A program made the translations under genes and the position numbers. Below, piece by piece: positions 19,873 through 22,988 of a DNA stretch of 64,000 bases (positions are counted from its first letter, which is position 1; each line of letters starts with the position of its first letter). Below the pieces are notes generated by a model that had not been told where the DNA came from, ran no database searches, and was given only the letters and a program-made list of their open reading frames with translations. Source of the DNA: Sulfurovum sp. UBA12169 (lineage in GTDB: Bacteria > Campylobacterota > Campylobacteria > Campylobacterales > Sulfurovaceae); assembly GCA_002742845.1 (NCBI GenBank), contig DLUH01000002.1, forward strand, positions 56,848 through 120,847, in the 5' to 3' direction.

Positions 19873-20391
19873 ATGGATATTTCAAAAATCGGTCATGGCG
19901 AGAACCCCAATGCAGTCAAAGCAATCATCGAAGTGCCGCTTAACTCAAATATCAAATATGAAATCGACAAAGATTCCGGAGCCGTAGAGGTTGATAGAAT
20001 CCTTTACTCCGCAATGCACTATCCGGCAAATTACGGTTTCGTACCTAATACGCTTTCAGATGATGGTGATCCGGCAGACATATTGGTACTTTGTGATTAT
20101 CCGCTTCAAGCCGGCGCAGTCATCAAATGCAGACTTGTGGGCGTACTTATGACTGAAGACGAAAGCGGCGGTGATGAAAAATTGCTAGCCGTTCCTACAA
20201 CAAAGATCGATCCTACCTATGCCAACATTAATGATCTTGCAGATGTGCCAAAACATACACTTAACCGCATCAAAAATTTCTTTGAAACATATAAAATGCT
20301 TGAGCCAAACAAATGGGTAAAAGTAGCCGGCTTCAAAGACAAAGCAGAAGCAGAAGCTATTCTTGCAAAAGCGATCAAAAACTACAAATAA
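19873..20391 (+). CDS. ppa: Inorganic pyrophosphatase (family I)
   Basis: KYEIDK, YPANYGF, DGDPAD and DEKLLAVP. Confidence 0.98.
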   Translation: MDISKIGHGENPNAVKAIIEVPLNSNIKYEIDKDSGAVEVDRILYSAMHYPANYGFVPNTLSDDGDPADILVLCDYPLQAGAVIKCRLVGVLMTEDESGGDEKLLAVPTTKIDPTYANINDLADVPKHTLNRIKNFFETYKMLEPNKWVKVAGFKDKAEAEAILAKAIKNYK

Positions 20392-20396
20392 TTTTA

Positions 20397-20419
20397 AAGC
20401 GAAGGCTTAGCCTTCGCTT
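20397..20419. terminator. Terminator hairpin between ppa and the convergent protease gene
   Basis: AAGCGAAGGC-tta-GCCTTCGCTT perfect inverted repeat. Confidence 0.8.
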
Positions 20420-20512
20420 ATCTGCAAAACAATTTAATATCCAAGAAACAAAAAATTATTTATTTTAGGTACTCTTGCTTGTTTATTATTATGCCAATTT
20501 AACCGATATACC

Positions 20513-20947
20513 TTACACGATAAGTGAAAAATAACATAAATTATAAAACATATGCAAAAAAATACTGCATACTATATGGTTGTATCGATCCTTAAAATAA
20601 CCAAACAGCAAAGAGGGCACAAAGGTCAACAATGCAAAGAAAGGGGCATGATGTATCATATGCATCAACACAAAAAGCACAGAAGTTAAAATATTGGCAA
20701 TCGAAAAAATAAAAAAAGAGGGAAGCTGTTTTGTTTTTTCATGCAGATATTCTTGGGTGATGCCTCTAAAAACAAGCTCCTCTACGACGGGATAAAAAAA
20801 GACAAGGGAAAAAAGAGATTTCATATCAAAGAAAAGCCAAAATACATCAACAGGCTTTTCTTTCAAAACAAGTAGATAACCAAAACAAAACACAGGAGCA
20901 GCCATGAGTGCTGCTCCGTATTGTACGTGTAGTGATCGCATGAGCAT
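20513..20947 (-). CDS. mrtJ: CPBP (type II CAAX) glutamic-type intramembrane protease, MrtJ-like (JDVT-CTERM system)
   Basis: VVEELVFRG (EExxxR), LFVLMH (FxxxH) and LHMFYN (HxxxN). Lies directly downstream of a CTERM-tailed protein. Confidence 0.82.
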   Translation of the reverse strand: MLMRSLHVQYGAALMAAPVFCFGYLLVLKEKPVDVFWLFFDMKSLFSLVFFYPVVEELVFRGITQEYLHEKTKQLPSFFIFSIANILTSVLFVLMHMIHHAPFFALLTFVPSLLFGYFKDRYNHIVCSIFLHMFYNLCYFSLIV

Positions 20948-20948
20948 C

Positions 20949-22820
20949 TTATCTGATCAGTTTGCGTCTCCATGGATAGAGTACTGAAAGCGCCAATAAG
21001 ACAAAGAACATCATATCAAACTTGTCAACGTTTGGATTATAGGTACATCCACCGCCGCCGCCTGTGCTTACTTTCTCATCCATTTGGATCAGCTCCCAAC
21101 CGCCTTCGGGTTTATTGTCGGTTACATCCGTCATCAGGTTCATCGGGTTGGCCATACCCAGGTAAAAATGATCCGCATCGCTTACCATCGTTCGGATTCC
21201 ATAGCTTCCATAGTTTCCGACTCCGGTTACATCTTCTGCAACCGCCTTCTTTGTACTGCCGTCTATCCTCCACAAATCGGCACCGTTATTGACCTCATAC
21301 GACAGCAAAAAGCTCAGTTCTGATGATAAATTCATATCTCCAAGCATTTCAGTCATCAAGTAGCTCCAGTCCATCGTTCCGATATAGAGCCTCTCTTTGA
21401 AAACTTCCATTGTCCACGTATAGTTGTTAAACGTGTTGCCAAAGCCGGATTCTCCCCAGAGCGGTGCAGTTCCCATATTATTGGGTACATCAACAAATCC
21501 TTGGCCTGGAATATATCGGGGCAACATCGTTTCTCCGTACAGCAGTTCAACAGTTGCATTGCCGTCTTCGTCAATATTGCCGGCACGGAAGATAGATATC
21601 GCCCGGTGTGTTCCCAGCATCGTATCCGTCATAGCTTCTTCATCGCTTGTATTGATGTCATAGACGTTCACTGCGGCCATTGTTGCTACCATCGGTACAT
21701 GCATGGTCCCCCAGTAGAGCTGTCCATCAAATGACGCGATCGCCCCGCCTCCGTATGTTGCTGCCACTACGGGATCAGGTTCATAGTCTGAGGCTTTCCA
21801 TACTTCTGTCCACATCTCCTCTGATGCAGGCAAACCCTCACCGACAACCGGGCTCATATAGACTCCCGCTACCGAAGAACCCCCGGGCAGCTCGGAACCT
21901 GGCCAGCTTGTCACAAACAGTCTGCCTTCATGGTACGCCAGCTCCGCGCCCGAACCAGGCAGTCTCCCGACTTCTGCAAAATGAAAAGGATCCGTTGCAT
22001 CGCCTTCCCATTTCAGCACTCTTCCCGTATCGTTTTGATCACCCACGGCCGTATACAGCTCATCGCCTACTACGATCCACTTTCTGATATTGCTATACTC
22101 GGCAAATGAATGCGAACCCAAATAGGTATGGTTTGCATCATCCTTAAAGGCAAACATATTGACGCTCAAACCTCCGCCTCCAAATCCTGGCCCGGCAAAA
22201 AATACCACACCGTTATGTGTCCCGGCAGATCGTATTCCTAAGGTGGACAAGATTCTTCCGCTGGGATCTTGTTGGAGAGTAGGCGTAATATCTTCGTTGG
22301 CACCTGTTGCTTTGTTGTATCGATAGATCTTAGGCACACGCCAGTCACCCAGCCCCATTGCTCCCAACACTAAATAAGAACTTTGTCCTGTAATATTTGC
22401 CATATAGACAGGATATTGGCTTTCACTGAGTTCGCATACCCATGAGTCATTCAGCGTCGGCTCTGACTGCTGATGATAGGTGCCGTTTACCAAACACAGC
22501 GTATTGGGCGCGGTACCAAACCACACATACGCCTCGGTATTGGCAAGTCCCCACACATAGGCCTGATTGACTTTGGGCTGATAGCCACCATTTATACAGT
22601 TTTGGACATCCTGTTCATATGTCGGACCATTGGGGTTTAACGGTACATACGTTTCACCAACCCCGTTAAAACACTCATCGGGTGCTGCTTTCGCCAACAA
22701 TGCAGGCTTCAAAACCGCCGCCGAGGCAGTCGTCTGTGCCATCAGTGCCATACATCCGATCAACATACCCTTTCCTATGATCACCTTTAGCCATTTTGTT
22801 ACATTCGGATCTTTTTTCAT
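20949..22820 (-). CDS. Large secreted protein with a JDVT-CTERM-like C-terminal sorting signal
   Basis: Signal peptide ending ASA. C-terminus STGGGGGCTYNPNVDKFDMMFFVLLALSVLYPWRRKLIR. Start at 22820 behind SD AAGGGGG. Confidence 0.85.
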   Translation of the reverse strand: MKKDPNVTKWLKVIIGKGMLIGCMALMAQTTASAAVLKPALLAKAAPDECFNGVGETYVPLNPNGPTYEQDVQNCINGGYQPKVNQAYVWGLANTEAYVWFGTAPNTLCLVNGTYHQQSEPTLNDSWVCELSESQYPVYMANITGQSSYLVLGAMGLGDWRVPKIYRYNKATGANEDITPTLQQDPSGRILSTLGIRSAGTHNGVVFFAGPGFGGGGLSVNMFAFKDDANHTYLGSHSFAEYSNIRKWIVVGDELYTAVGDQNDTGRVLKWEGDATDPFHFAEVGRLPGSGAELAYHEGRLFVTSWPGSELPGGSSVAGVYMSPVVGEGLPASEEMWTEVWKASDYEPDPVVAATYGGGAIASFDGQLYWGTMHVPMVATMAAVNVYDINTSDEEAMTDTMLGTHRAISIFRAGNIDEDGNATVELLYGETMLPRYIPGQGFVDVPNNMGTAPLWGESGFGNTFNNYTWTMEVFKERLYIGTMDWSYLMTEMLGDMNLSSELSFLLSYEVNNGADLWRIDGSTKKAVAEDVTGVGNYGSYGIRTMVSDADHFYLGMANPMNLMTDVTDNKPEGGWELIQMDEKVSTGGGGGCTYNPNVDKFDMMFFVLLALSVLYPWRRKLIR

Positions 22821-22988
22821 TTTGTCCCCCTTTGGTGTTTTTACATTCTCACTATAGTACAAATAAAATTAAGCTAAGTTTATAGCAAATCTATAGTGAT
22901 ATGGGGCGACAGGCGGTGACAAATCTGAATATCCTAAAACTAAAAGAAAAAATGGGGAAAATGAGATTTCTACGGGTTTAGTTTAATG

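Follow-up and report, generated by a model that had tools for sequence, protein, structure and literature searches.

A JDVT-CTERM protein and its MrtJ protease in Sulfurovum sp. UBA12169: a likely two-gene sorting module with a beta-propeller cargo and a conserved hairpin inside mrtJ

Background

Why would a bacterium encode a protease directly behind one secreted protein, and what would that protease do to it? The question is raised by a pair of genes in Sulfurovum sp. UBA12169 (Campylobacterota), located in a 64,000-nt stretch of contig DLUH01000002.1 (positions 56,848 to 120,847; assembly GCA_002742845.1). This whole stretch is called the window below, and positions are counted from its first nucleotide. 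One gene encodes a secreted protein of 623 residues (the cargo) with a JDVT-CTERM tail, and the other encodes MrtJ, a glutamic-type CPBP intramembrane protease of 144 residues. The best explanation, which we consider likely as a whole, is that the pair is a JDVT-CTERM/MrtJ protein-sorting module; this takes in both the sorting pathway proposed below and a role for a hairpin embedded in mrtJ.

JDVT-CTERM/MrtJ was defined bioinformatically, with one client per genome and adjacent genes, in beta- and gamma-proteobacterial hosts, and with a nearly invariant DP motif in the tail helix about 10 residues after the Cys (Haft, bioRxiv 10.1101/2023.06.07.544157). A sister protease, MrtX, cleaves MYXO-CTERM in a Cys-dependent manner, is active in E. 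coli and is required for anchoring at the surface; transfer of MYXO-CTERM proteins to the cell surface depends on the type II secretion system (T2SS), and Lgt is the suspected lipid transferase (PMC11980579). NCBI annotation already names MrtJ homologues in Sulfurovum and in other Campylobacterota. An earlier note on this DNA, made from the sequence alone, had put the pair forward as its best candidate for an uncharacterised system. JDVT-CTERM/MrtJ is to date a bioinformatic definition, but the system was catalogued by Haft in 2023 and is annotated by NCBI in Sulfurovum, and cleavage by the sister protease MrtX has been shown experimentally.

Results

The JDVT-CTERM tail and the MrtJ protease

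Both members of the pair score above the curated cut-offs of their families. The cargo matched the JDVT-CTERM hidden Markov model (HMM) NF033191 with 39.9 bits as a whole protein, 44.7 bits in a six-frame search of the genome and 46 bits for the tail alone, the cut-off being 27 bits. The protease matched the MrtJ equivalog model NF033192 with 104.7 bits (cut-off 75), PF02517 (Rce1-like) with 61.4 bits (cut-off 22.4) and Mrt_core with 54.9 bits. The earlier note had matched the tail and its partner to JDVT-CTERM/MrtJ and proposed an HMM check, which bears it out. It had also proposed a genome-wide search for further tails; profile searches found exactly one JDVT tail and exactly one MrtJ gene in the genome, and a regular-expression sweep of the genome found no additional Cys-helix-basic tails.

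The C-terminus of the cargo reads GGGGG-C592-TYNPNVDKF-D602-M-MFFVLLALSVLYPW-RRK-LIR. It has the tripartite design of such tails, with a single Cys signature, a hydrophobic helix and an Arg/Lys cluster (GGGGG-C592-...-FFVLLALSVLYPW-RRK-LIR). A canonical tail from Magnetococcales reads GC-TLNPNAPGN-DP-M...RRR. The tails of the Sulfurovum clade, that of the window included, retain the Cys, the NPN and the Asp at Cys+10, and a YP[FW]RR motif ends their helix. The Pro of the DP motif is replaced by Met, Ala, Leu or Phe throughout this clade, and DP is found in the canonical tails of Magnetococcales and metagenomic sequences. An open reading frame (ORF) of 1,035 residues outside the window (G000:C4:571397-574504) also has a helix and basic residues at its C-terminus, ...SPALNHISAGLMILITLMLGLFFVRREELNQR; this tail is of another kind, gives no match with the JDVT model and may be a further sorting signal.

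By inspection, the N-terminus of the cargo, MKKDPNVTKWLKVIIGKGMLIGCMALMAQTTASA|AV, combines basic residues with a hydrophobic core (GMLIGCMALMAQ) and a predicted cleavage site, ASA|A, and residues 7-28 form a helix in the AlphaFold model. An N-terminal lipoprotein reading was considered for the lipobox-like L-I-G-C within this signal peptide (Cys23, 22752-22754) and rejected. This Cys is absent from homologues P0008 and P0010, in which the AXA motif is kept, and it is probably incidental because it is not conserved among homologues.

In an alignment of 17 diverse MrtJ sequences, the three CPBP motifs and the ANILTS and PSLLFG blocks do not vary. Among metagenomic relatives there is also an MrtJ-like subgroup with the N-terminal peptide KDPIF..LLVAPLPFW (L160, L166, L168, L188, L195 and L202-L211), which lacks both the hairpin described below and a Cys-tailed gene beside it. 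Its members may be housekeeping or orphan relatives.

Co-occurrence of tail and protease, and exchange of cargos

Across 116 genomes of the genus, a JDVT tail and MrtJ occur together in 26, MrtJ alone in two, a tail alone in three and neither in 85 (Fisher p=2e-20). In the two genomes with MrtJ only, one gene lies at a contig edge and the other is partial. A tail match lies about 145 nt from 26 of the 27 mrtJ genes of the genus, that is, directly adjacent. In 24 genomes that represent other families of the order, MrtJ never exceeded its cut-off. Both the HMM matches and the co-occurrence on which the earlier note had made its proposal depend were thus found.

The protease and the tail are conserved among sister genomes and the proteins that carry the tail are not. 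MrtJ is 55-61% identical and the tail is kept, and the bodies that precede it fall into at least four further unrelated families, of about 600, 870, 464 and 728 residues. The cargo of the window has only its last ~40 residues in common with these other cargos. The same tail and protease therefore serve at least five unrelated cargos within the genus.

A comparison of cargo and protease phylogenies had been suggested in the earlier note. In the MrtJ tree, proteases cluster according to the type of cargo, and the MrtJ of the window clusters with those of loci L022-L025, all of which carry the same propeller cargo. In three of these (L022-L024, from two Sulfurovum metagenome-assembled genomes and one labelled Campylobacterota) the cargo is 86-88% identical and the gene order is that of the window: amidase, cargo, mrtJ and convergent ppa. 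A metagenome-assembled genome labelled Desulfobacterium contains the same pair (cargo 68% and MrtJ 70% identical), and both HMMs pass.

Two further observations concern the arrangement of such modules in the genus. In five sister genomes with cargo type A (L015-L019), a conserved gene of 430-450 codons precedes the ~600-residue cargo, and these modules adjoin crcB-purQ-purC, not amiA/ppa; modules with different cargos therefore sit at different chromosomal sites. Several of the genomes G006, G070, G014 and G127 have three to four JDVT-tailed proteins per MrtJ, some of them encoded at a distance, which departs from the published 'one client per genome'.

A beta-propeller cargo of a widespread, unnamed family

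The earlier note had guessed that the cargo might be a beta-propeller and saw no enzyme that it recognised, and the structural model agrees. The AlphaFold model, built on 49 homologues, has a mean predicted local distance difference test (pLDDT) of 88.5 and a predicted template modelling score (pTM) of 0.86 and is nearly all beta-strand, and the sequence contains seven repeats of the form [IY][RG]...L[YF]xGT. Foldseek searches of the PDB returned only generic propellers of 6-8 blades, at TM 0.3-0.37 and 7-12% identity. In this model the cargo body is a seven-bladed beta-propeller with no specific structural relative.

No Pfam, NCBIfam or PDB sequence match to the body was found in the 49 family members, save weak Reg_prop matches in seven. 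FimH, MadL and Reg_prop were considered as clues to function and discarded as sub-threshold noise or generic. Conserved neighbours gave no clue that is common across phyla, the only recurrent ones being generic ABC/HlyD genes and lineage-specific synteny.

The family is nevertheless large. It comprises 1,636 clusters at 50% identity with E<=1e-3, of which 675 have E<=1e-30, and spans more than 15 phyla. It occurs in 236 species genomes, in every case at 40-48% identity. Its hosts include Micromonosporaceae, Anaerolineae, Bacteroidota, Planctomycetota, Gemmatimonadota, Verrucomicrobiota, Gammaproteobacteria and one Peregrinibacteria genome. The invariant residues comprise four Cys and numerous Asp, Arg, His, Asn and Trp, among them D48, E130, D159, R161, R197, R246, H374, R406, D484, D515 and R543.

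The ends of these proteins differ. Among relatives, HMMs identified MYXO-CTERM (24.5 bits; cut-off 20) and IPTL-CTERM (32.8 and 39.3 bits; cut-off 20.5), and Pfam precomputation or the C-terminal sequence indicated a type IX secretion system (T9SS) tail, SLH, dockerin and LysM; some members end without any anchor. Together with the four conserved Cys, these varied ends mark the body as an extracytoplasmic module of the choice-of-anchor type.

One exchange of sorting system lies within the genus itself. The metagenome-assembled genome Sulfurovum sp. STE_24 (L028:5162-7836) encodes a 55%-identical propeller with a Cys-less, Gly-rich tail, KKGGGAIDLLDLSFLMLLFGLFGFRK, directly after a gene for a rhombosortase (TIGR03902; 105 bits, cut-off 84). 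Set beside the window, this locus is a natural swap of the sorting system for one cargo. The curated GlyGly-CTERM HMM did not match the tails of L028 or P0015, so the L028 pair is verified for its rhombosortase half only.

Within the order, the propeller body was found in two of 401 genomes (96 genera sampled), both in this genus. Because the body is so rare here and widespread in other phyla, the simplest reading is that it was acquired from outside the order and fused to a resident tail-plus-protease cassette.

A conserved hairpin inside mrtJ

A consensus terminator scan flagged GGAGCAGC-ACTCATG-GCTGCTCC and a T-rich run at 20917-20895, at the beginning of the mrtJ coding sequence. The stem has 8 bp, six of them G-C pairs, and is followed by UGUGUUUUGU. 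No Rfam family covers this hairpin.

The stem is present in 22 of 22 mrtJ junctions from the genus. The Ala codons of its 3' arm are GCT in 19 and 21 of these 22 rows, GCT making up 20% of Ala codons genome-wide. The unpaired Ala/Pro codons beside the stem use all four third bases, with an entropy of 1.9 bits versus 0.27-0.57. This bias among synonymous codons supports selection at the RNA level.

In a wider set of 40 distinct sequences that included metagenomic ones, the stem pairs in 98.1% of cells, versus 32-71% when the register was slid. Changes on both sides of a pair occur in 14 cells versus 4.1 +/- 1.5 in shuffles, a value reached by 0 of 500, although the rows are related sequences throughout and the shuffle control does not remove relatedness. 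At one pair that is free to vary synonymously the states are A-U 31, G-C 5, G-U 2 and U-A 1, and at the other A-U 21, G-C 8 and G-U 8. Within the genus alone covariation is weak, and 13 of 500 shuffles reached the observed score.

The hairpin was also located by its distance from the protease active site. In 38 metagenomic mrtJ loci anchored on the catalytic EE codons, 34-nt segments starting 147-132 nt upstream of these codons have a mean folding energy of about -9.4 kcal/mol at the core of the dip, versus -3 to -5 elsewhere. The hairpin also accompanies canonical tails of the DP type, and the stems reach 12 bp in L174 and L189. A Magnetococcales mrtJ gene, which encodes a shorter peptide, has a 7-bp stem at the same place that uses bases of neighbouring codons. 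Where a tail is adjacent, the range of the hairpin was the most stable of nine local ranges in 18 of 21 loci; where none is adjacent, this held for 6 of 37 (p=2.5e-7).

Hairpins between cistrons set unequal expression within operons, as in the Rhodobacter puf operon and through the repetitive extragenic palindromic (REP) elements of malEFG. The mrtJ hairpin resembles these in being stable, in standing at a gene boundary and in separating a presumptively abundant upstream product from a scarcer downstream one; it differs in that the candidate lies inside the downstream coding sequence and is followed by a U-rich run. Its most probable role is that of an attenuator or 3'-stabiliser, by which transcripts of the cargo would outnumber those of mrtJ.

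Layout of the locus

The features are listed in Table 1. The two minus-strand ORFs jointly span 20513-22862, and the layout described in the earlier note (two genes, a signal peptide, a Gly-Cys tail and a 144-residue CPBP protease with three motifs) was recovered as such. The cargo start was placed at the ATG at 22820, giving 623 residues, because a ribosome-binding site, AAGGGGGA, lies 4 nt upstream and the same Met starts homologue P0003. The stop codon of the cargo (20951-20949) is separated by a 1-base gap from the mrtJ ATG at 20947; an alternative mrtJ ATG at 20941 gives 142 residues, as in most homologues.

Table 1 Features of the JDVT-CTERM/MrtJ locus (positions in the window)
Feature	Position	Strand	Basis
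Cargo ribosome-binding site AAGGGGGA	22825..22832	-	Read from sequence; 4 nt before ATG at 22820
Cargo gene, 623-residue secreted JDVT-CTERM protein (stop included)	20949..22820	-	ORF; ribosome-binding site and homologues fix start; NF033191
Sec-type signal peptide, residues 1-34, predicted cleavage ASA|A	22719..22820	-	Sequence inspection; AXA kept in homologues
Predicted seven-bladed beta-propeller body, residues ~35-583, unnamed widespread family	21072..22718	-	AlphaFold; Foldseek; no Pfam/NCBIfam match
JDVT-CTERM sorting tail, residues 587-623: Gly run, Cys592, NPN, Asp602, membrane helix, RRK	20952..21062	-	NF033191; sister and canonical tails
Codon of invariant Cys592, predicted modification and cleavage site	21045..21047	-	Sequence; role inferred from Haft 2023 and PMC11980579
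mrtJ, 144-residue glutamic-type CPBP intramembrane protease (alternative start 20941)	20513..20947	-	NF033192; PF02517
Conserved RNA hairpin GGAGCAGC-ACUCAUG-GCUGCUCC in mrtJ codons 11-18, then U-rich run; candidate attenuator	20895..20917	-	Terminator scan; covariation; codon bias
Catalytic motif 1, E56-E57-x3-R61	20765..20782	-	Invariant in alignment A3
Catalytic motif 2, F92-x3-H96	20660..20674	-	Invariant in alignment A3
Catalytic motif 3, H132-x3-N136	20540..20554	-	Invariant in alignment A3
GC-rich inverted repeat GCGAAGGCTAAGCCTTCGC between convergent mrtJ and ppa	20399..20417	.	Read from sequence

The neighbours are also those that had been named: an AmiA/B/C-type amidase gene upstream of the cargo, and downstream of mrtJ a convergent gene for inorganic diphosphatase (ppa; 240.5 bits, cut-off 200). 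The inverted repeat between mrtJ and ppa is a possible bidirectional terminator, and the consensus terminator scan did not call it because its T-run is short. A weak Rfam match to L20_leader at 20336-20429 (E=0.17) was judged to be due to chance. In Sulfurovum sp. UBA4779 (L022:9141-11848) two additional secreted-protein genes, which the window does not have, lie between mrtJ and ppa; they encode 420 residues with Big_5 and Big_2 Ig-like domains and 480 residues that match no family.

The genome has 1.86 Mb in 5 contigs and 40.7% GC. The GC contrast between cargo and protease that had been estimated by hand in the earlier note is real, at 48.7% (z=+2.0; rank 17 of 780 long ORFs) versus 34.7% (z=-2.0), but it is modest and weak evidence for horizontal transfer. 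GC at third positions is 0.50 in the cargo and 0.34 in mrtJ, the genome mean being 0.40 +/- 0.06. GC was rejected as proof of horizontal transfer, since the cargo has a third-position z of only 1.65 (rank 45 of 780) and the contrast is largely an effect of amino-acid composition; the stronger argument for transfer is the phyletic pattern given above.

Discussion

Proposed sorting pathway

By analogy with MrtX/MYXO-CTERM, Sec would export the cargo precursor, whose C-terminal helix would keep it in the inner membrane. Next, Cys592 would be modified, probably by lipidation, with Lgt as the leading candidate enzyme. MrtJ would cut just after the Cys and so remove the helix and RRK, and the cargo would pass to the cell surface via the T2SS and be anchored there through the C-terminus so created. 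The hairpin, which lies 30 nt into mrtJ, may end or stabilise most transcripts after the cargo gene, leaving substrate in excess over enzyme; we regard this last step as evenly balanced between right and wrong.

The genome encodes the machinery that such a pathway would use. Lgt is present (152 bits; cut-off 119), as are GspD (369.7 bits; cut-off 351) and GspG (132.6 bits; cut-off 88.9). GspD clusters with GspG, GspE, GspF, GspC and pseudopilins, GspE, GspF and GspC having been assigned by best hits. The cultured Sulfurovum indicum transcribes its T2SS genes.

Alternative explanations

Several points weigh against the sorting module as we have described it. The cleavage site, the lipidation and the surface exposure of the cargo are all inferred by analogy. 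In the tail of the window, Met stands where the nearly invariant DP motif has its Pro (D602-M); the curated HMM passes. With 103 of 116 genomes encoding it, GspD is a core gene of the genus, and co-distribution with the T2SS is for that reason uninformative on dependence. One 100%-complete sister genome (G026) has two MrtJ modules and no GspD match at E<=1e-60. It is a possible exception to dependence on the T2SS; alternatively, its secretin may be divergent. For the hairpin, the terminator scan showed no enrichment, with 1 site where shuffles gave an expectation of 2.6, the local fold has a z of only -1.68, and the peptide G-A-A-x-x-A-A-P largely dictates the stem, since its codon positions 1-2 are self-complementary. 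As to G026 itself, its modules (C46:25500-45400, locus L021) carry cargos of 464 and 867 residues, and no other high-quality genome of the genus lacks a GspD match at that threshold.

MrtJ might instead cleave without any lipid modification, so that the tail is a temporary membrane tether and the propeller is released in soluble form to the periplasm or the medium. Even for MYXO-CTERM, lipidation is proposed without chemical proof (the mBio paper), and most members of the propeller family, for example those of Micromonosporaceae, are anchorless and plainly soluble secreted proteins. We nonetheless think such a release improbable: all four Cys-type sorting signals share the invariant Cys, on which cleavage by MrtX depends, and relatives of the cargo in other lineages bear anchoring modules (MYXO-CTERM, IPTL-CTERM, SLH, T9SS) in place of plain secretion signals. 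It is also conceivable that the helix is a permanent inner-membrane anchor and that MrtJ is a conditional sheddase or quality-control protease, not an obligatory maturation enzyme. Some uncleaved TraA is still located at the surface in an mrtX mutant, and the hairpin suggests low expression of mrtJ relative to the cargo, both of which favour this reading. A dedicated maturation enzyme is consistent with the strict one-to-one adjacency and co-occurrence and with the way in which proteases diverge along with their cargo types, and the polar residues conserved in the tail helix (NPN, and Asp at Cys+10) point to specific recognition; a sheddase is accordingly very improbable.

The hairpin might also have no function as RNA and be a by-product of shared ancestry and of the G-A-A-x-x-A-A-P peptide of the first membrane helix. 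The amino-acid sequence fixes six of the eight stem pairs, and the relatedness of the rows, which the shuffles leave in place, the low fold z and the weak covariation in the genus-only set all speak for this view. The two synonymous pairs that the peptide leaves free nevertheless form in 39 and 37 of the 40 rows, in A-U, G-U, G-C and U-A states. GCT is favoured in the 3'-arm Ala codons while the adjacent unpaired Ala/Pro codons are saturated, the Magnetococcales gene keeps its stem despite the shorter peptide, and the hairpin tracks the adjacent cargo. On this balance we find a mere by-product doubtful, and prefer an attenuator or 3'-stabiliser within the sorting module.

A further extension of the sorting module would be that the tail, mrtJ and the embedded hairpin form a portable surface-display cassette that recombines behind any secreted protein, with the hairpin keeping the protease sub-stoichiometric and the rhombosortase route interchangeable with it. 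We offer this tentatively, as a possibility that falls somewhat short of an even chance.

Comparison with known systems

The pair shares with JDVT-CTERM/MrtJ as defined by Haft both HMM matches, a single Cys after a Gly run, the helix, the basic cluster, one cargo per genome, adjacency of the genes and a minimal CPBP protease. It differs in its host, which is a member of the Campylobacterota and not of the beta- or gamma-proteobacteria, and in the Met that replaces the DP Pro. Neither the propeller family nor the mrtJ hairpin is in that paper, and in some sister genomes one protease is accompanied by 2-4 tailed proteins.

The MYXO-CTERM/MrtX system of Myxococcus xanthus has a homologous protease core and a Cys-containing tripartite tail, and Lgt and a T2SS are encoded here too. 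The pathway proposed for it, comprising Sec export, Cys lipidation, intramembrane cleavage and T2SS export, is the one proposed here. MrtX differs in being a housekeeping protease with ~35 clients, in having an extra N-terminal domain and in not being encoded beside its clients; its role has been shown experimentally, whereas that of MrtJ is deduced. Rhombosortase/GlyGly-CTERM likewise pairs a dedicated intramembrane protease with a C-terminal tripartite tail, but its protease is a serine rhomboid and its tail lacks a Cys, whereas MrtJ is glutamic. The propeller family resembles the 'choice-of-anchor' families of NCBIfam in combining one conserved extracytoplasmic body with many alternative anchors. 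It differs from them in that the body matches no NCBIfam or Pfam model, and it is therefore not a member of any named family.

Conclusions

The module is real but of a kind that has already been catalogued and that is already annotated in the genus. Three aspects go beyond the known description: an unnamed and widespread propeller cargo, cargo swapping that includes a rhombosortase alternative, and a conserved hairpin embedded in coding sequence. The locus is a clean minimal case of JDVT-CTERM/MrtJ, with one cargo that is compact and folds well, one protease, and a genome that also encodes Lgt and a T2SS; a sister species with the same cargo and a rhombosortase provides a natural control. The propeller family is large, highly conserved (40-50% identity between phyla) and unannotated, occurs in cultured Micromonosporaceae and in many uncultured phyla, and is a reasonable target for studies of structure and function. 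The hairpin recurs in the MrtJ modules of several bacterial classes and could mark those MrtJ genes that are linked to a cargo. If it is functional, it shows how a two-gene operon of an enzyme and its substrate sets its own stoichiometry.

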